Part shown: positions 7,209-17,966 of the stretch, piece by piece
Layout of the letters: each line of letters opens with the position of its first letter
Position numbering within the stretch: the stretch's first letter is position 1
Sequence record: MN850583.1
From: Escherichia phage glasur
Direction: 5' to 3' (one strand)
Length of the DNA: 42,507 nt
The notes under the pieces: model-generated
What the model was told of the DNA's origin: nothing
Seen by the model: the letters and a program-made list of their open reading frames with translations, nothing else
The model's database searches: none
Program-made: the position numbers and the translations under genes

Positions 7209-7642
7209 AGCCAAAGTACAAAGTCGGTGATGAAATCGTGGGCGACGATGGCACTGGCACCCGGTCGGGTAAGCTGGGTATCATCGCATGGGTTAACCCT
7301 GACCGCCGAGCGTGGGAGCGCAGCGGGGAGACTCGTTACATCGTGAGCTGGATTGGTGAGCGCCTCAATGCGCAGCCGGATATCAGCCACTACAAATCTG
7401 ATTGGCTGGAGGACAACACCAGTCTGGTCAGCACGCCAGCAGAGAAGCGCGGTCGGTTCATGTGTCTGCTTGAGGGTGGCAGCACGCCGCCGAAGATTGA
7501 GCACATCACTGAACGTGAAGCGCGTGATGAAGCTGAGCGTCTGGCTGAGCGCCACGGTGGTACTGTCCGTGTGCTGCAAGTTGTAGCCAGCGTGAAGATG
7601 AAGAAGAAGATTCAGTACATACCGGACTGGGATAACGAATGA
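7202..7642 (+). CDS. Protein of unknown function (about 147 aa)
   Basis: Track ORF 7193..7642; the ATG at 7202 is preferred over the GTG at 7193. Confidence 0.65.
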   Translation: MVKPKYKVGDEIVGDDGTGTRSGKLGIIAWVNPDRRAWERSGETRYIVSWIGERLNAQPDISHYKSDWLEDNTSLVSTPAEKRGRFMCLLEGGSTPPKIEHITEREARDEAERLAERHGGTVRVLQVVASVKMKKKIQYIPDWDNE

Positions 7643-8349
7643 TGAAATCAGTGAGCAACGACGAGTGGCCGGAGCTGGCGAAGCGTCTGCCTGTAGGACA
7701 AAAGCGAAGGACGTTTCACAGTTGCTCGCGGTCATTCAACAAGACCAACTTCGAGTATGGCCGTGCGCCGGATTACATCTGGTGCAAGTGCCACCGCTGT
7801 GGGTACAGCCAGAAGCGTGACCTGACTCACGCTGTGTATGTGCCGCCAGCCGAGGTGCAGGTGAAGGTGCCGACTGATGTGGTGCCTATCACTGAGGTGA
7901 TTGCCAAGCAACCACGGCTGCTGCTGCCAGTGCTGGAGCGGGAGAACCTGATGCCACACCTGTCACTCCTGACTGCAAGCCCAACGTATGGCAGGCTGTA
8001 TCTGCCGGACGACACGGGCAGCTACTGTGGTCTGGACTACACGGGCAGGCAGTTCATCCCGTGGCGCTCGCCGCATAAGCATAGCTTGGCGATGAAGGTC
8101 AGTCCTCGTGGTGACGCGGAGACTAACTGCCTCTGGATTTATGGTGAGGTGGATGAGTATCTCCAGCAGGTGCGCGATGGTGGCAACTGTGCATTCGTTC
8201 CGAACGTGGATGATGCAACGTTGCAGGCTCTGGTCAGTGTGACGCTGGCGTATGGGTACAACCTCGTGGTCATCTGCCACCACCCAAGCGCCCAACGTAT
8301 CCGCAGGGAGCTGCGTATTGTGGGGCGTGTGCAAATCGTAGGAGAGTGA
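7639..8349 (+). CDS. Putative DNA primase (Cys-rich N-terminal zinc-binding region)
   Basis: Cysteine cluster HSCSRS...CKCHRC near the N-terminus and position immediately upstream of the helicase gene, as in phiKMV-like phages with separate primase and helicase. Assignment is mainly by position. Confidence 0.45.
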   Translation: MMKSVSNDEWPELAKRLPVGQKRRTFHSCSRSFNKTNFEYGRAPDYIWCKCHRCGYSQKRDLTHAVYVPPAEVQVKVPTDVVPITEVIAKQPRLLLPVLERENLMPHLSLLTASPTYGRLYLPDDTGSYCGLDYTGRQFIPWRSPHKHSLAMKVSPRGDAETNCLWIYGEVDEYLQQVRDGGNCAFVPNVDDATLQALVSVTLAYGYNLVVICHHPSAQRIRRELRIVGRVQIVGE

Positions 8350-8350
8350 T

Positions 8351-9616
8351 GTGCTTGACAAGCTGTTGTTAACGGTGATGCGCGAGCGCGGGAAGTTCAA
8401 CTCCCTGCGACACGCCATCCCGGAAGATACGATGAGCCAGACCACGAGCTATATGCTCAAGGCTTACGGCTCATACTTTGATGCGTTCCCGGACAGTGAC
8501 TACATTGACATTGACACGCTGGGTACACACGTTCGTTTAAAGACAGGCAGCACGCCTGAACAGATGGCAGCCTTTGATTCGTTGTGCTCGCAGCTTCGAG
8601 AGTACAAGCCAACGAAGGAACAGAAGGAAGGTGTGCTTGACCAGCTCGTCGAGTTGGATACCGCTGGCCGTGCTAACCTGCTAATGCAGAGGTACGACAA
8701 TGGTGAGGAACTGGATATTATCTATGAGCTGGGCCGTCTTGCTGAGGGCGCACGTCGCAGCCGGGGGCAGTCATCTGTCACTGATTACGTGGACGATGAT
8801 GTGGTTGATATTCTCAACCGGACGGATGATAATCACGGCCTCAAGTTCGGTCTGCTCTGCTTGCAAGACAGCGTTCGCGTACTTCTACCCGGCGACTCCG
8901 TTGCCATCGGTGCTCGACCTGACAGCGGAAAGACTTCCTTCATCGCGTTTAACCTTACGCGAATGGCGGCGACAGCAGCGAAGCTCTATCCGGGCAGGCC
9001 AATCCTCTGGTTCAACAACGAGGGGCAGGGCATCAACATCATCCCGCGCATCTACCAAGCGGCGCTCAACTGCACGCTCCCGGAACTGAAAGAGCTGGGA
9101 GAGGACAGGGCTAAGCTGCACGCTGCGTATGCCAAAGCGCTGGGTGCGCCAGCCAACATCATCCGTGTGAAGGATATGCACGGCGCGTCGCTGGCGAAAG
9201 CTGAGCAGGTTATCGAAGCGATGAACCCATGCGTTGTGGTGTGGGATATGTTGGCGAACTTCAAGCTGTCTGTCTCCGATGCCAACAGCAACAAGGCGTC
9301 GCAGGTTGAGCAGCTATGGCAGGAGGTACGTGAGCTGGCCGTGCGCCACGACTTCGTATCAATGGCCACGGTGCAGGTATCAGCCGATGGCAAGGATGAT
9401 ATGTTCCCTGCGCTGGATGCACTCAAGGATTCCAAGACTGGTATCCAAGGTGCGACTGATGTTATCGTCATGCTCGGCAGCGTGGATGACCCATCGCTGG
9501 CAGCGCGGCGCGGCGTCAGCACTCCGAAGAACAAACGCCAGATTGCTGGGCGTCCATCCAACGTGCGGTCGCAGGTTCACTTCTTTGCTGACCGCTGCCA
9601 ATTTGAGGATATGTAA
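8351..9616 (+). CDS. DnaB-like replicative DNA helicase (T7 gp4 helicase-domain type)
   Basis: Walker A GARPDSGKTSF and Walker-B-like VVVWDM; 421 aa. GTG start with GGAGAG upstream. Confidence 0.75.
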   Translation: MLDKLLLTVMRERGKFNSLRHAIPEDTMSQTTSYMLKAYGSYFDAFPDSDYIDIDTLGTHVRLKTGSTPEQMAAFDSLCSQLREYKPTKEQKEGVLDQLVELDTAGRANLLMQRYDNGEELDIIYELGRLAEGARRSRGQSSVTDYVDDDVVDILNRTDDNHGLKFGLLCLQDSVRVLLPGDSVAIGARPDSGKTSFIAFNLTRMAATAAKLYPGRPILWFNNEGQGINIIPRIYQAALNCTLPELKELGEDRAKLHAAYAKALGAPANIIRVKDMHGASLAKAEQVIEAMNPCVVVWDMLANFKLSVSDANSNKASQVEQLWQEVRELAVRHDFVSMATVQVSADGKDDMFPALDALKDSKTGIQGATDVIVMLGSVDDPSLAARRGVSTPKNKRQIAGRPSNVRSQVHFFADRCQFEDM

Positions 9617-9960
9617 TGAGCGTGATTAAGGTAGGCGACCGAGTTCGTAACTGTGACACCAAGAGCATACACCATGGCGCGACTGGTACTGTGGTTGATA
9701 TCGACAGCAAGTGTATCAGCATCAAGCGTGATGATGGCTCTCGCGGTTCCGGTATCTATGGCTCGTGGACTGCACGGCCTGAGTGCTGGGAGCTGCTGGT
9801 TGAGGTGCCGGAGCCGACGACCACCGATGAGGACTGGAGCTACGCTGAGGCTGAGCGTCTGTATCAGGCAGCGTGTGATGCCATGGCCAAGTACAATCAG
9901 TACGTTGAGCGTAAGCCTACGACCAGCTACCTGCCCGGCAGCAAGCCGAGTAAGTGGTGA
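9616..9960 (+). CDS. Protein of unknown function (114 aa), possible KOW/SH3-like N-terminus
   Basis: ORF track. N-terminal KVGDRVR...GATGTVVDID pattern. Confidence 0.6.
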   Translation: MSVIKVGDRVRNCDTKSIHHGATGTVVDIDSKCISIKRDDGSRGSGIYGSWTARPECWELLVEVPEPTTTDEDWSYAEAERLYQAACDAMAKYNQYVERKPTTSYLPGSKPSKW

Positions 9961-10124
9961 AGGGGCGCAGCTATCGCCGTTGCTCTTGCGGTGGGTGCCT
10001 GCTGGTTGAGCAGGTCAAGGGCAAAGCCACTGGCAAACCGCTGGTGATTTATGAATGTGAGAAGTGTGGAGCGAAGCAGTATGGAAGACAAGGTGTATCG
10101 AGCAGCACCCTTAACCCAGCGTGA
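9957..10124 (+). CDS. Possible zinc-ribbon mini-protein (about 55 aa; CSCGGC ... CEKC)
   Basis: GTG-initiated ORF below the track cutoff with two CxxC-type pairs. Overlaps the next ORF in another frame, so it is uncertain. Confidence 0.3.
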   Translation: MKGRSYRRCSCGGCLLVEQVKGKATGKPLVIYECEKCGAKQYGRQGVSSSTLNPA

Positions 10125-10272
10125 ACAAGACACCATCCGGGCGCAGTACCGGAAGGGTGATGCGTTCCGTGGTGAGGAAGCATTGGGTGAGCGTTACAAC
10201 GTGGCACCCGAAGATATCGTGGCTGTGGTTAACTTCACCTATCGTAAGGGGAAACAGAAGCATGATAAGTAA
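10081..10272 (+). CDS. Small protein of unknown function (63 aa)
   Basis: Internal ATG of track ORF 10051..10272 with GGAG about 10 nt upstream. Confidence 0.45.
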   Translation: MEDKVYRAAPLTQREQDTIRAQYRKGDAFRGEEALGERYNVAPEDIVAVVNFTYRKGKQKHDK

Positions 10273-10945
10273 TGCCGAAGCTAAGCGCGTGTGGGCAGAA
10301 GATATCTGCCGTCTGCTGCAATCCGAAGAACTGAACTTCGTGGTTGCCGGGGGAGGGGCAAGGGATACCGCGCTGGGTGTTGAGCCGAAGGACTACGACA
10401 TTGTAGTCTTTGGTTGGGGTGGTGATGTGAGCCGTGTGGCTGGCCGACTGGACTGGCTGGACTCCAGACTGGAGGACTACGCCAAGCAGAACGAGCTGGC
10501 GTATGAGTACATGCCGAGCTATCACGATGCAGCAGAGGGTGGCGACTTCGGCTCCCGTCTGTGGGGTGTGTATAAGATTGGCCCGGTCGATGTGATTATC
10601 AGTAAGTGCGGGTGCTGGTCGCAGGTACTGAACGAGTTCGACTTCAACCTGAACCAGTTCTACTTCCCGTCCAGCATCCCGCGTTACTCCGGCCAGTACA
10701 GCCGCGACCCCGGCGAGTTCATGGCGTACCCGTATGAGCCGAACCTGACTGCCGAAGATGTGCAGTGGTTCCCGGCGCTGGCCAGTCTGGTAGAAAGCTA
10801 CGATGACCTGCTGACTCTCCGTGTCTGCCGACCGGATGCCAGCCTGAGTCGTGTGGCCTACATGCTGGAGAAGCACGAGAAGTATCTGCCAGCCATTGAA
10901 GCATACGTTAATCGTATGCCCGACCACTTAGGTGGCAAAGCATAG
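10262..10945 (+). CDS. Nucleotidyltransferase with Pol-beta-type head domain of the CCA-adding/poly(A) polymerase class (227 aa)
   Basis: Motif FVVAGGGARDTALGVEPKDYDIVVFG matches the GGxxRDxxLGxxxxDxD signature of class II tRNA nucleotidyltransferases. ATG at 10262 with AAGGGGA upstream, inside track ORF 10121..10945. Confidence 0.6.
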   Translation: MISNAEAKRVWAEDICRLLQSEELNFVVAGGGARDTALGVEPKDYDIVVFGWGGDVSRVAGRLDWLDSRLEDYAKQNELAYEYMPSYHDAAEGGDFGSRLWGVYKIGPVDVIISKCGCWSQVLNEFDFNLNQFYFPSSIPRYSGQYSRDPGEFMAYPYEPNLTAEDVQWFPALASLVESYDDLLTLRVCRPDASLSRVAYMLEKHEKYLPAIEAYVNRMPDHLGGKA

Positions 10946-10955
10946 CGGGGGATTG

Positions 10956-13421
10956 ATGGCTATTCGAGCACAGATTATCGACGTTGAAACTGAGAACCAC
11001 GAGTGGTATGGGGAGCTGGCATCACCTCGCTGCCCTGACAACTACGTGGTGATGCAGGGACAGCGCGACTGTGTGCTGACCAAGGATGGCTGGGAGTTCT
11101 ACAAGCGTGAGGAATATCGGTACGCATCCCGTGAGGATTGGCTGGCGAACAAGAGCCTGCACCTCCACCCGGATACGAACATACTGGTTGCACACAACGC
11201 GCCGTATGAACTGAGCTGGTGGTTCGAGCATTACGGTGATGAGTTCAAGGCGTTCCTCTTACGAGGTGGCCGTGTATTCTGTACCGCGTATGCTGAGTAT
11301 CTGCTGACACACCAGCAATCCCAGTACCCATCCTTGAACGAGACAGCACCGAAGTATGGTGGTACTCACAAGGTGGATGCAGTCAAGGCAATGTGGGAGT
11401 CAGGTTATCTGACCAGCCAGATTGACGCTGAGCTGCTGAGCGAGTATCTGTCCGGGCCGTCCGGGGATATTGAGAACACGACCAAGCTGTTCGTTGGTCA
11501 GTGGGCAGAGCTGACGAAGCAGGGCATGTTGCAGATGGCACTGACCCGCTTCGAAGGTATGCTCATGTGGGCGTACATGATGCACTCCGGTCTACACGTT
11601 GACCGTGAGGTAGCAGAGCGTAACCGCCGTGAGTTGCAGGATTCAATCAGTGGGTTAACCGAGACACTGATGGGCTACCTGCCTGCCGACATGCCAAGTG
11701 AAGCGCGTGAGCAATTCAAGTTCACGTCTGCTTATCACATGAGCGCATTCGTGTTCGGCGGCGTGATGAAGTACAAGGCGCGAGTCGAGCGCCGGGATGG
11801 AGATGGCAATCTCATTTACGTGAAGGTGGATGCACCACTGTTCAAGCGTGGCAAGGACAAGTGGCTCAAGCATACCAGCGAGTGCGAGTGGGATGATGAG
11901 ACTGGGTTGTGGTATGACCCGGTTGAGAAGGTACACCAGACCATCTACTCCAGCGGGAAGAACAAGGGTGCGCCCAAGTTCGAGAAGTTGGCGACCGATG
12001 AGGTGGACACCAAGTGGGGTGAGGTACTGTTCCGGTTGCCCGGTCTGCTGCGTGTGCAGGACAGACGAGCGCGGGAGATTGCCGACAACCTTGAATGGGA
12101 AGACCCGAAGCGTCCGGGTGAATATCTCCGGCGCACTGGTGACTGGGTAGGTAAGCGCAAGCTGGCTGACGGTTCTCCTGTATTCAGTACGGCGGGTGAG
12201 GTGCTGGACATTCTGGCAGCTCGTAAGATTCCCGGCGTCGTGGAGATTGCTGACCGGGCCAAGGCGCAGAAAGACCTCGGCACCTACTACCTCAGCGAGA
12301 CGTTTGATGATGAGGGCAACGTGACTGGCCAGTCGGGGATGATGCAGTTCATCCAGCCGGACAGCATCGTACACCACACCATCAACATGACCGCGACTGA
12401 GACGACGCGATTGTCATCTCAGCGACCGAACAGCCAGAACCTGCCACGTAAAGGTACGAGTAAAGTTAAGCAGATGTTCACCTCTCGCTTTGGCGAAGGT
12501 GGCCGCATCGTTGAGGCTGACTACTCGGCACTGGAAGTGGTGGGGCTGGCCGGGTTCAGTAAGGACAAGAACCTGATTCGTGCATTGCTCGATGGTATCG
12601 ACATGCACTGTATGCGATTGTCTGCTCAACTCAATGAGCCATACGAGGACGTGCTTAAGAAGTGCAAGGATGAATCCCATCCTGACCATGCACGATACAG
12701 TCAGATGCGTACTGACATTAAGCCCAAGGCGTTCTCCTATCAGTATGGTGCAACAGCGCGAGGCATTGCCTACTCGACTGGTTGCTCGGAGGAAGAAGCA
12801 CAGGCGTTCATCGACAACGAGAAGGGTCTGTTCCCGGAAGTTGAAGAATGGTTCGACGCTGTAATCTTCCCCGCCGTTGAGCGTAGTGGACAGAGCAACG
12901 TGTTCAAGGAACAAGATGAGAACGGACGGTGGCAGGTGTATCGCCGTGGTCACTTCCGCTCGCCGGGTGGAACTTGTTATTCATTCCGTCAGTATGAGAA
13001 ATGGAACAAGGCGGCGCGTGCTTATCTGATGGAATACAAACCAACCCAAATGCGTAACTATCCTATTCAGGGTGAGACAGCGTTTTGGGTGCAGGGAATT
13101 GGTGGGCTGCTGTTCCGCTGGCTGCTGGCCAATGACTTCTTTGGTGGGCGTGTGGTTCCCATCAACCAAGTGCATGACGCATTCTATTTCGACGTGGCAC
13201 CTGACTGTCCTCACGAGTTCTTCGTTGGACTCAAGGCAATCATGGAATCCATCCCGGAATATTACAACCACATCTGGCCTGAATATAACCTGACAGTTCC
13301 GTTTCCGGCAGAGGTAGAAGCTGGGCCAAGCATGTACGAAAAGCATCACGTAGAGACGACAGCCGAAGAAGTGCTGGAGTTCAAACGTAACTTCCTGACG
13401 AGTAAGGGTATTAGCATATGA
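10956..13421 (+). CDS. Family A DNA polymerase (T7 gp5-like) with 3'-5' exonuclease domain
   Basis: Exo I motif IIDVETEN, polymerase motif A DYSALEVVG, motif B KAFSYQYGATARG and motif C VHDAFYFD. The ATG at 10956 is preferred; the track's GTG at 10932 is possible. Confidence 0.92.
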   Translation: MAIRAQIIDVETENHEWYGELASPRCPDNYVVMQGQRDCVLTKDGWEFYKREEYRYASREDWLANKSLHLHPDTNILVAHNAPYELSWWFEHYGDEFKAFLLRGGRVFCTAYAEYLLTHQQSQYPSLNETAPKYGGTHKVDAVKAMWESGYLTSQIDAELLSEYLSGPSGDIENTTKLFVGQWAELTKQGMLQMALTRFEGMLMWAYMMHSGLHVDREVAERNRRELQDSISGLTETLMGYLPADMPSEAREQFKFTSAYHMSAFVFGGVMKYKARVERRDGDGNLIYVKVDAPLFKRGKDKWLKHTSECEWDDETGLWYDPVEKVHQTIYSSGKNKGAPKFEKLATDEVDTKWGEVLFRLPGLLRVQDRRAREIADNLEWEDPKRPGEYLRRTGDWVGKRKLADGSPVFSTAGEVLDILAARKIPGVVEIADRAKAQKDLGTYYLSETFDDEGNVTGQSGMMQFIQPDSIVHHTINMTATETTRLSSQRPNSQNLPRKGTSKVKQMFTSRFGEGGRIVEADYSALEVVGLAGFSKDKNLIRALLDGIDMHCMRLSAQLNEPYEDVLKKCKDESHPDHARYSQMRTDIKPKAFSYQYGATARGIAYSTGCSEEEAQAFIDNEKGLFPEVEEWFDAVIFPAVERSGQSNVFKEQDENGRWQVYRRGHFRSPGGTCYSFRQYEKWNKAARAYLMEYKPTQMRNYPIQGETAFWVQGIGGLLFRWLLANDFFGGRVVPINQVHDAFYFDVAPDCPHEFFVGLKAIMESIPEYYNHIWPEYNLTVPFPAEVEAGPSMYEKHHVETTAEEVLEFKRNFLTSKGISI

Positions 13422-14305
13422 CCGCATCAGTATTGAACCGCATGAACTCCATCGTCGAACAGTATGTTGACGAGGAAGAACTTGACTTTAACGAAGCCAC
13501 GTCTGGTGGTGGTAAGCTCCTGCCGGAAGGTAAGGCGCTGGCCCGTCTGGTTGGCTACGTTGAGGTGGGGCCGCACGCCACTAAGCAGGCACCGGACAAA
13601 CCGCCAGTCAACAAGTTCTTCCTCCAGTTCGCACTGTGGGGCAAGGCCAAGAACGGCGAGACTTACCACGAAGTTGTCAATGGTAAGATGGTGCCGGGCA
13701 AAGTTCGCACGCAGTTCATCGCTGTGAAGAAAGACCTGAACAGTAAGTCCGGCGCTTACAAACTGTTCAAGCGCATGAACCCGGACAAGACTGCGAAGCA
13801 CTTCGCGCAGTTGCTGAACCATACCTTCATCGTTCCGATTACCCACAACGAATCTGGTGAGGGTGAGAACAAGAAGGTGTATGCGAACATCGACCTTGAG
13901 AACATCATGCTCGCTGTTGACCCGGTAACTGACCAGCCGTACCCGGTGCCGGAAGTCGAAGACGAGACGCTGTTCAAGCTGTTCCTGTGGAACCGTCCGA
14001 CCAAGGAAGACTGGGAATCGCTGTACATCGACGGCAAGAACGACGATGGCAAATCCAAGAACTGGATTCAGGACAAGCTGCTTGAGTCTCCTGAGTTCCC
14101 CGGCTCACCTCTTGACCTGCTGCTCAATGGCGCTGGCGCTGGCTCTGCCATCGCTGAGCTGCCGGAGCTGGGCGATGTAGGCCAGCCGGAGGAAGTGAAG
14201 GAAGTTAAGCAGGAAGTCGCTGAGCTTCCGGTGAAGGGTGAAGCCGACAGCAAGAAAGAGCCGGACGTGACTGGCGAAGCTGACTTCGGTTTGCCTAGCC
14301 TGTAA
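13418..14305 (+). CDS. Protein of unknown function with acidic low-complexity C-terminus (295 aa); possible ssDNA-binding protein
   Basis: ORF track. Start overlaps the DNA polymerase stop (ATGA). Acidic tail with EADF near the C-terminus is reminiscent of T7 gp2.5; this is speculative. Confidence 0.6.
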   Translation: MTASVLNRMNSIVEQYVDEEELDFNEATSGGGKLLPEGKALARLVGYVEVGPHATKQAPDKPPVNKFFLQFALWGKAKNGETYHEVVNGKMVPGKVRTQFIAVKKDLNSKSGAYKLFKRMNPDKTAKHFAQLLNHTFIVPITHNESGEGENKKVYANIDLENIMLAVDPVTDQPYPVPEVEDETLFKLFLWNRPTKEDWESLYIDGKNDDGKSKNWIQDKLLESPEFPGSPLDLLLNGAGAGSAIAELPELGDVGQPEEVKEVKQEVAELPVKGEADSKKEPDVTGEADFGLPSL

Positions 14306-16747: not shown

Positions 16748-16968
16748 GTAGGACACTGTATGAAGACAGTGTAGTGGAGCTTAAGTCTGATGGCCTCTCG
16801 ATTGACTGGGAGGCCCGGACGCAGGTTCAGCTATACGACGATGGCACCGTCTGCATTTCACAGGACGGCGATGAGGTATGGCTCCCATGGGCCTATGTCA
16901 AAGATATCATCTTTGCTTTGGAGGAAGCGCACGATGCACATGAAAGACACCGTAGTAGTAGACCTTGA
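16744..16968 (+). CDS. Protein of unknown function (74 aa)
   Basis: Track ORF with GTG start overlapping the upstream stop. No internal Met; overlaps the next gene by about 35 nt. Confidence 0.4.
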   Translation: MSRTLYEDSVVELKSDGLSIDWEARTQVQLYDDGTVCISQDGDEVWLPWAYVKDIIFALEEAHDAHERHRSSRP

Positions 16969-17437
16969 CGGCACGCTGGCTGATGGCCGTTGGCGTCTGC
17001 ACCTGCTGCCTCCACCGGAGCGCAGGCATCTGGATGAAGCGTGGGCCGAGTTCAACTTGGCTGGCGCTGACGACCCAGCGTTTCAGGACACGATTGATAT
17101 TGTGAACGCACTGGCCCTCACGTATCGCATTATCATTCTGACCGGACGCGGGGCCGTGGCCCGTGAAGTAACCGAGCAGTGGCTCGACGATAATGGTGTG
17201 GTGTACGACAAGCTCATCATGCGTGAGATTGGCGACTGCCGCAAAGACACTGAGATGAAGCGTGCAGCGCTGGAAGACATTGGCATTGAGAACATCGTCT
17301 GTGCCTTTGATGACCTGCCGCACATCGTGGACTTTATGCGCAGCCTCGGCATCACAGTGTACGAAGTAACCCGGTATGAAGACAACCATGAGTATGTCCA
17401 TGCCAATGCAAAATACGATGGGGATAAAGATGAGTAA
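16934..17437 (+). CDS. HAD-superfamily phosphatase-like protein (167 aa)
   Basis: N-terminal VVVDLDGTLADG carries the HAD motif I DxDGT. ATG at 16934 with GGAGGAA upstream, inside track ORF 16790..17437. Confidence 0.55.
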   Translation: MHMKDTVVVDLDGTLADGRWRLHLLPPPERRHLDEAWAEFNLAGADDPAFQDTIDIVNALALTYRIIILTGRGAVAREVTEQWLDDNGVVYDKLIMREIGDCRKDTEMKRAALEDIGIENIVCAFDDLPHIVDFMRSLGITVYEVTRYEDNHEYVHANAKYDGDKDE

Positions 17438-17966
17438 ACGTGGCGACCACTTCTGCCTGTGCATCGAGCGCGACTACAAAGACGCGCTGCTTAATGAGCT
17501 GCGCGATGCTGGTGTAGTGCTGACATACGACGAGCCTTACGATGTGCCGAACGACAGTCGTGATTACTACACCTGCGTATACAATGGCAGTACCAAAGTG
17601 CTGGTGCTTGAACCATTCGAAGTGCAGGCCGTGGAGAAATCATTCATCCCGGTAGAGCCGGAAGCTGGGCCGGGCGGTATGAAGTATGACGGCGGTAAGC
17701 CACGCATGGCCCTGCTGCTCGACGGCTGCCCGAATGCACTGGAGGCTGTGGCCAGCGTGCTGACCTTCGGCGCTCAGAAGTACGCAGCTCACTCATGGCA
17801 GACTGTGCCGGAAGGTGAGGAACGTTACAAGTCAGCGCTGCTCCGGCACCTGACTGCGGTGGGTAAGGGTGAGGAACTCGACCCGGAATCTGGCCTGCAC
17901 CATCTGGCGCACGCTGCTTGCAATGCACTGTTCATTCTCGAACTGGCTTTAAGGAAAACTAAATGA
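17430..17966 (+). CDS. Putative MazG-like nucleotide pyrophosphohydrolase domain protein (178 aa)
   Basis: C-terminal half (KYDGGKPR...VLTFGAQKY...RYKSALLRHL...ESGLHHLAHAACNALFILE) resembles, from memory, the phage dATP/dGTP diphosphohydrolase (MazG-like) domain. N-terminal half is of unknown type. Confidence 0.45.
   Translation: MSKRGDHFCLCIERDYKDALLNELRDAGVVLTYDEPYDVPNDSRDYYTCVYNGSTKVLVLEPFEVQAVEKSFIPVEPEAGPGGMKYDGGKPRMALLLDGCPNALEAVASVLTFGAQKYAAHSWQTVPEGEERYKSALLRHLTAVGKGEELDPESGLHHLAHAACNALFILELALRKTK

Follow-up and report, generated by a model that had tools for sequence, protein, structure and literature searches.

The class II tRNA nucleotidyltransferases (NTases) and poly(A) polymerase I (PAP I) move a nucleoside monophosphate (NMP) from a nucleoside triphosphate (NTP) onto an RNA 3'-OH without a template, as do all close relatives of the protein considered here. 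It is encoded on the + strand at 10262..10945 of a 42,507-nt stretch of DNA (sequence record MN850583.1, the window below), which is the essentially complete 42.5-kb genome of Escherichia phage glasur, a Bonnellvirus-type autographivirus. The product, a stand-alone class II-type NTase of 227 amino acids (aa) from the PHROG 1614 family, has in common with the class II tRNA NTases and PAP I the Pol-beta head fold, motif A, the Asp-x-Asn-x-Asn core of motif B and a helix at the position of motif D, while it is about half their size, has xFD instead of RRD and a shortened segment ahead of motif B. The gene and its family are already known: orthologues in LF82-23 and in the RefSeq entries of J8-65, Lidtsur and LIMEzero carry the label nucleotidyltransferase, the family has a PHROG of its own, and two papers deal with it (Spruit et al. 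2020, PMC7291057; Evseev et al. 2020, PMC7693777).

The motifs discussed below are those defined by Hoffmeier et al. 2010 (PMC2910056) and Tomita and Yamashita 2014 (PMC3925840). The arginines of RRD (motif B, DxxRRD) take part in ribose recognition (PMC2910056), while EDxxR (motif D, in the neck) serves as an amino-acid template that forms Watson-Crick-like pairs with CTP and ATP (PMC3925840, PMC2910056). The PAP I signature lies between motif A and the flexible loop (PMC2910056), and the helical body and tail domains bind the acceptor/T-arm and the tRNA elbow (PMC3925840).

As read from the sequence, the gene starts with the ATG at 10262 and ends with the TAG at 10943-10945, and a Shine-Dalgarno-like AAGGGGA, the putative ribosome-binding site, lies about 10 nt 5' of the start (10246..10252, + strand). 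Comparison with three orthologues (LF82-23, L005 and J8-65) gives ratios of nonsynonymous to synonymous substitution rates (dN/dS) of 0.07-0.16, at dS of 0.27-0.78. Together with the match to the PHROG 1614 profile, labelled nucleotidyltransferase (E 2.4e-41, 143 bits, residues 7-224 against profile positions 16-206 of 268), these values show that the gene is real and under purifying selection, and is no chance open reading frame (ORF). An antisense ORF of 230 aa (10235-10927, - strand) that covers nearly the whole gene has no gene support and is a shadow ORF.

Searches with the single sequence (Pfam, NCBIfam, and phmmer against PDB) yield sub-threshold matches only, confined to residues ~12-53 (E 7.5e-4 to 0.12 for the PcnB/CCA models of NCBIfam, E ~1 for PDB), and a family profile was therefore needed. 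Among 1.84 billion representatives 54 relatives were found, of which 53 were accepted as family, with lengths of 53-273 aa; the 53-aa relative is a fragment, and a 762-aa protein (P0049) was left out of the family as a spurious repeat protein. The family alignment, A1, comprises 55 sequences of 145-273 aa each, with members about 25-40% identical. The significant PDB matches of its profile are exclusively class II CCA-adding, A-adding or poly(A) polymerase enzymes, in particular a psychrophilic CCA-adding enzyme (6ibp, E 1.8e-9), E. coli PAP I (3aqm, E 2.6e-8, positions 7-143, with kFDfNiNqfy opposite RRDFTINSLY, so that motif B is included), and the human, Thermotoga, Aquifex and Bacillus enzymes (E 1e-6 to 5e-5). 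PF01743 (PolyA_pol) is found in 23 of the 55 family members, with the best E of 5.4e-7. Pairwise hhalign gives 139 columns with E. coli CCA (residues 26 to ~218 of the query against 3-155 of CCA, probability 85.6%, E 5.6e-6) and a probability of 96% with PAP I (residues 7-49, E 4.5e-9).

The AlphaFold2 (AF2) model, a check that the first-pass annotation of this stretch (made from the sequence alone) had proposed, is of good quality (predicted local distance difference test 88.5, predicted TM-score 0.87), and class II enzymes are the best matches of the protein both by sequence profile and by structure. The next structural neighbours, TENT5 and MenT1, are RNA 3'-end tailers. The hG[GS] turn and the carboxylate patterns [DE]h[DE]h and h[DE]h, described by Aravind and Koonin and by Kuchta (as quoted in PMC7291057), are all present on a mixed beta-sheet. 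Moreover, GGGARD...DYD together with the significant head-domain profile match assigns the protein to class II in the sense of PF01743. Almost certainly, then, it is a single-domain enzyme of the Pol-beta superfamily whose closest kin is the head plus first neck helix of class II tRNA NTases and PAP I. The cellular stand-alone "CCA-adding enzyme head domain" NP_344798.1 (PDB 2LA3) has 11% identity to it and scores under the full-length class II enzymes.

The residues that bind metal and NTP in these enzymes are preserved throughout the family. Both halves of motif A lie in FVVAGGGARDTALGVEPKDYDIVVFG (residues 26-51 of the translation, coded by 10337-10414). The first half, G30-G31-G-A-R34-D35 (10349..10366, + strand), is the GGxxRD turn that binds the NTP triphosphate; it is aligned with GGAVRD of E. 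coli CCA and GGGVRD of PAP I, and G30, G31, R34 and D35 are each found in 55 of 55 sequences. The second half, D44-Y-D46 (10391..10399, + strand), contains the metal-binding carboxylates of DxD, aligned with DRD of E. coli CCA and DFD of PAP I and likewise invariant (55/55), so that the catalytic carboxylates are present on formal alignment. The candidate third carboxylate is D110 in V-D110-V-I (10586..10597, + strand), an h[DE]h pattern in a predicted strand (109-114) with Asp in 54 of 55 sequences; the same pattern has been noted at residue 114 of the homologue Gp22 (PMC7291057). D110 would be the equivalent of D99 in the Thermotoga and E74 in the Aquifex enzyme, in a region (residues ~80-115) where profile alignments are unreliable. 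In this unreliably aligned segment hhalign also puts F96-G-S opposite R62-T-E64, the BxA motif of E. coli CCA.

Motif B is degenerate. F126-D127-F-N-L-N131-Q (10637..10657, + strand), preceded by a Glu, has lost both arginines of the segments aligned with it, RRDLTINA in E. coli CCA and RRDFTINS in PAP I, and keeps the Asp and Asn residues only; D127 is found in 55/55, F126 in 53/55 and N131 in 53/55 sequences, N129 is conserved in at least 90%, as are D110, F126 and N131, and the in-register pattern [RK][RK]D[FYLC]x[ILV]N is found in none of the 55. If D110 is the third acid, the segment between it and motif B has ~16 residues versus ~27 in E. coli CCA, being ~11 residues shorter. In the clade of Bonnellvirus and LIMEzero an insertion of ~45 residues with lower model confidence (residues ~136-185) separates motif B from the C-terminal helix.

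That helix (195-218 in the AF2 model) starts within R190-P-D192-A-S-L-S-R197 (10829..10852, + strand), a region topologically equivalent to motif D and the neck helix. R197 is invariant (55/55), D192 occurs in 32/55, and in the hhalign alignment R197 faces the latter of the two arginines in the E. coli CCA segment GEDPLRVLR, so that R197 may be an analogue of EDxxR. EDxxR itself occurs at the aligned position in none of the 55 sequences, and the sole EDxxR string of the glasur protein (E13-D-I-C-R) sits in the N-terminal helix. The PAP signature [LIV][LIV]G[RK][RK]Fx[LIV]h[HQL][LIV], sought as a regular expression, is found in 0/55 family members. Body and tail domains are absent as well, since the chain stops after the one long helix, at position 155 of the 412 in the alignment with CCA.

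As RRD, EDxxR, the PAP signature and the body and tail are all missing, the protein is a class II-derived head with a neck stub, and neither a CCA-adding enzyme nor a poly(A) polymerase proper. The first-pass annotation had placed it in the CCA-adding/poly(A) polymerase class, an assignment that is supported with this caveat. Its other readings of the protein stand: an ORF of about 227 aa at 10262-10945, an N-terminal signature of the class II tRNA-NTase head (GGxxRD and DxD in all 55 sequences, profile E 1.8e-9), and a size of about half that of bacterial CCA-adding enzymes (227 versus 412 aa in E. coli, or 55%).

Relatives were detected by tblastn in 186 of 50,697 phage records, with hosts from Pseudomonas (109), Vibrio (25), Escherichia (16) and Klebsiella (13), while Yersinia, Pantoea and Pectobacterium are among the further hosts; in these records, labels such as nucleotidyltransferase, tRNA nucleotidyltransferase or poly(A) polymerase are given to many of the relatives. 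Homologues are also found at 71 IMG/VR loci, and structure matches in BFVD include LIMEzero (TM-scores 0.75/0.84), PP2, fHe-Yen3-01, LKD16, RSB3, Cd1, fBenAci002 and others. The PHROG 1614 members fHe-Kpn01 Gp22, LIMEzero F4N9S5, LKD16, PP47 gp28 and fHe-Yen3-01 resemble the glasur protein in motifs, size range and location in the middle region of the genome. Evseev et al. 2020 discuss the gene under a heading of its own as a putative CCA-nucleotidyltransferase; it was present in 37 of 46 Pectobacterium autographiviruses but in just 60 of the other autographiviruses, which number more than 500, and its phylogeny does not follow the subfamilies (PMC7693777). No informative domain fusions were found, other long forms bearing merely unannotated C-terminal tails; the 325-aa ORF in locus L044 is an artefact of ORF calling, and the 762-aa repeat protein was rejected as a fusion too. 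Nine family members (P0017, P0018, P0020, P0022, P0023, P0025-P0027 and P0029) carry precomputed matches to PF26128.2, for which no name was recovered and no literature mention found; possibly PF26128 is a new addition to Pfam that covers precisely this family.

When 185,579 prokaryotic species, each represented by one genome, were scanned with the single peptide pattern FD[FYC]N[IL]NQ[FW], five loci came up, all of them complete T7-like modules within Pseudomonas assemblies, and there was no free-standing cellular homologue among them. Three of these loci (L076, L078 and L079, from Pseudomonas rubra, P. fontis and Pseudomonas sp. SID14000, on contigs of 121-262 kb) hold complete modules of single-stranded DNA-binding protein (SSB), endonuclease I, amidase, NTase, primase/helicase and DNA polymerase. 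Such modules on large contigs suggest integrated (temperate) prophages or chimeric assemblies. PHROG 1614 is thus a phage-restricted accessory family, spread horizontally among T7-like and phiKMV-like podophages and located in their middle gene block.

The position of the gene within this block varies. Neighbours were mapped at 75 loci (the 71 from IMG/VR plus reference phage records), 73 of which contain a family member. At 45 loci the order is of T7 type, with SSB, endonuclease I, amidase, the NTase gene, primase-helicase and then DNA polymerase (neighbours confirmed by Pfam in L020), and in T7 itself this slot is occupied by the dispensable gene 3.8. At ten loci the gene directly precedes the DNA polymerase gene, at one it follows it, at four it follows an exonuclease gene, nine have other arrangements, and four could not be mapped, so that at least five genomic slots are occupied. 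The glasur gene lies 5' of the DNA polymerase gene, while the Drulisvirus gene lies 3' of it (immediately downstream in fHe-Kpn01), and the gene of T7-like phages lies between amidase and primase-helicase. The constant trait is the middle transcription block of DNA metabolism, and there is no fixed partner gene. The placement just upstream of the DNA polymerase gene, which the first-pass annotation had considered notable, is therefore correct for this genome, where 10 nt separate the two genes, but it is not a conserved arrangement (10 loci versus 45 of T7 type). Functional coupling to the DNA polymerase was rejected on this mapping, the adjacency being lineage-specific and incidental.

The metal- and NTP-binding residues, invariant among members that are only 25-40% identical, argue for a working enzyme. 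Its mechanism would then follow that of its kin: D44, D46 and D110 would bind two metals, and the NMP of an NTP would be joined, with no template, to a 3'-OH, most probably that of a host RNA (at the tRNA acceptor end or in another RNA). With no body and tail, a tRNA cannot be measured in the manner of CCA-adding enzymes, and a defined CCA addition is therefore not expected. MenT toxins, of ~190 aa, also have no body and tail, yet they are toxic and active on tRNA acceptor ends. The glasur NTase is not a member of the MenT/AbiEii toxins: there is no match at the sequence level, the motif set is another one, no antitoxin partner is evident and the gene is phage-encoded, not belonging to a TA or Abi module of the host; nor is there a PADLOC match to any of its profiles for NTases of defence systems (MenT/AbiEii, CD-NTases and others).

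As to biological effect, Spruit et al. 2020 recognised these three NTase patterns in fHe-Kpn01 Gp22 (182 aa) too, and showed its toxicity when expression was induced with arabinose in E. coli (PMC7291057). Gp22 is a family member (hhalign probability 99.6%, E 1e-24; BLASTP E 3e-11, 32% identity), and its toxicity fits an enzyme that acts on a conserved host molecule. Toxicity of Gp22, restriction to phages, the patchy, host-linked spread and the variable slots together argue for an accessory, host-directed enzyme and not for a replisome component. The protein would thus be a host-directed effector for takeover or counter-defence, neither a housekeeping CCA-adding enzyme nor a subunit of the replisome. 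We give this explanation as a whole a probability of about 0.55; its more specific part, untemplated tailing of the 3' ends of host RNA, is as yet tentative and falls somewhat short of even odds. A still more specific version, in which a body-less class II head recognises and modifies the 3' ends of host RNAs in a manner unlike that of any CCA-adding enzyme, either as a "MenT-like" tailer or blocker of selected host tRNAs or RNAs in takeover or as a minimal counter-defence rebuilder of tRNA 3' tails (perhaps with a Pnkp-type 3'-phosphatase), is rather unlikely.

Several observations weigh against host-RNA tailing. Taken alone, the glasur sequence reaches 14.2 bits with PF01743 (E 0.057, residues 28-50), under the gathering score of 23, so the Pfam hit expected by the first-pass annotation is sub-threshold for this protein alone and is obtained for its family, through the 23 matching members and the significant family profile. 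The protein is acidic (isoelectric point (pI) 4.6, net charge -14), as is the family (pI 4.4-7.6, with 54/55 members at or below 5.9), and how an acidic NTase with no RNA-binding body and tail would bind polyanionic RNA autonomously is not obvious; this argument is weakened by the E. coli CCA head, which is acidic too (pI 5.3), while that of PAP I is basic (pI 9.8). There are weak matches to small-molecule NTases (ANT(2'')-Ia in Foldseek, E 0.014; PF10706 in two members, E 3e-4). Toxicity upon over-expression is unspecific evidence, sugar and base specificity are unreadable from a sequence that has lost RRD and EDxxR, and literature searches found no biochemistry of any family member.

The first-pass annotation had considered three possible functions, namely repair of damaged tRNA 3' ends, tailing of RNAs, and synthesis or modification of a nucleotide signal. 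Repair of tRNA 3' ends, in which C, CC or A would be restored on CCA tails clipped or blocked by host immunity or toxins, is an improbable alternative, although the nearest homologues of the protein are the CCA-, CC- and A-adding enzymes and the sporadic, host-linked distribution suits an anti-defence gene. The short segment of ~16 residues between D110 and motif B would, if D110 is the third carboxylate, correspond to the short flexible loop that is characteristic of CC-adding enzymes according to PMC3925840. Immunity that targets tRNA 3' ends exists in the form of MenT, toxSAS and a Cas12a3 effector, the last with collateral tRNA cleavage. Moreover, the window encodes a Pnkp-type 3'-phosphatase (16790-17437) that could heal 3'-phosphate ends ahead of extension, but its homologues are found in 1299 phage records, mostly NTase-free, which shows no specific linkage. 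The elements by which a repair enzyme would select CTP and ATP and hold tRNA (EDxxR and RRD in register, body and tail) are the missing ones, a complete CCA enzyme (cca) is present in the host anyway, and toxicity like that of Gp22 is unexpected for a repair enzyme. A role in the maturation of phage tRNAs was rejected, as no tRNA genes were found in the window, and their absence weakens the repair reading as well. Equally improbable in our estimate is nucleotidylation of a small molecule or protein, as by ANT(2'')/Lnu or by AMPylating antitoxins of MNT type, by which the phage could possibly neutralise an antiphage compound of cationic nature, or else a protein of host defence or metabolism. 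The strong acidity of the family and the similarities to ANT(2'')-Ia, Lnu(A) and LinB, which are of the same size class, acidic, and have an N-terminal motif of GG...D...DxD type, agree with it; but the acidic head of E. coli CCA takes force from the former, and these proteins are much less similar to the glasur NTase than the class II RNA enzymes, whose signal is far stronger.

The DNA-metabolism context raises the possibility of a replication accessory, that is, a dNTP-using terminal transferase or a modifier of DNA ends or primers that acts with primase/helicase and DNA polymerase, and this we consider less probable still. The gene is always found in the DNA-metabolism block, packed tightly among replication genes: it lies between helicase and DNA polymerase in the window; the Drulisvirus gene comes right after DNA polymerase, whose stop overlaps its start, and that of T7-like phages runs into the start of primase-helicase. 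In the window, no promoter- or terminator-like sites above background were seen between helicase and DNA polymerase, hence none between NTase and DNA polymerase. Loss of RRD, the sensor of the ribose 2'-OH (function per PMC2910056), could relax the discrimination against dNTPs. The case, however, comes down to location and the lost ribose sensor. Finally, the protein could be a dead remnant that only binds, for example a decoy or inhibitor of the host CCA-adding enzyme or PAP I; it is shorter than all characterised relatives and acidic, and sequestration could cause toxicity. We regard this as very improbable indeed, as metal- and NTP-binding residues kept invariant in 55 members of ~25-40% identity are a signature of retained catalysis. 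An untemplated enzyme directed at a host molecule, most probably RNA, is thus the reading that we prefer.

The glasur gene is surrounded by genes of DNA metabolism, all on the + strand: primase (7639-8349), DnaB-like helicase (8351-9616), three small ORFs, the NTase gene and DNA polymerase, followed, according to the order in a sister phage, by exonuclease, endonuclease VII, other DNA-metabolism genes and then RNA polymerase. A 5-kb query from this replication region (window 9000-14000) shares 98% identity with Escherichia phage usur and 97.8% with forsur; for RZ4, Kc261, ROV85, LF82-23 and J8-65 the values are 83-94%. Primase and helicase abut in the window (8349-8351), while LF82-23 has an extra 132-aa "endonuclease" gene there (L001 10964-11362), probably a mobile homing endonuclease. 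The small ORFs include two conserved ones, one of 114 aa (9616-9960, + strand, phrog_19629, function unknown), located between helicase and NTase, and one of 73 aa (10051..10272, + strand, phrog_31596, function unknown), whose end shares 11 nt with the start of the NTase gene, to which it is translationally coupled. Small ORFs of comparable size (67-81 aa) 5' of the NTase gene occur only in the Bonnellvirus and LIMEzero-type lineages, and the 73-aa ORF is therefore no family-wide partner. The gene of the family A DNA polymerase (10956..13421, + strand; phrog_17, E 8e-130, and phrog_9556, E 4e-125, both "DNA polymerase") starts with an ATG at 10956, 10 nt past the NTase stop, with a Shine-Dalgarno sequence GGGGGA at 10947-10952; this start was taken from the annotation of LF82-23 and sequence reading.

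Further downstream, the product of 16790-17437 (+ strand, phrog_415), called polynucleotide kinase in relatives, matches PF25109 (E 3.8e-15, residues 53-194) and by its domain content is a stand-alone Pnkp-type 3'-phosphatase, with the HAD domain only and no kinase domain. An RNA-repair "operon" of the NTase and the annotated polynucleotide kinase was hence rejected, given both the absent kinase domain and the mostly NTase-free records. The end of the phosphatase gene is overlapped by a gene (17376-17966, + strand) for a 196-aa protein with the N-terminal domain of dATP/dGTP diphosphohydrolase (PF18909, E 4e-34), on which some PHROG labels ("endolysin; inhibits RNA polymerase") look misannotated.

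PHROG 1614 thus represents, in 186 phage records, a family of half-size class II heads with apparently intact catalytic residues and none of the known elements for tRNA binding or nucleotide choice. Its members are small, soluble-looking and easily assayed. Once the substrate is identified, it should become clear what a bare class II head is capable of, and whether autographiviruses use tailing or repair of RNA 3' ends in host takeover or counter-defence.

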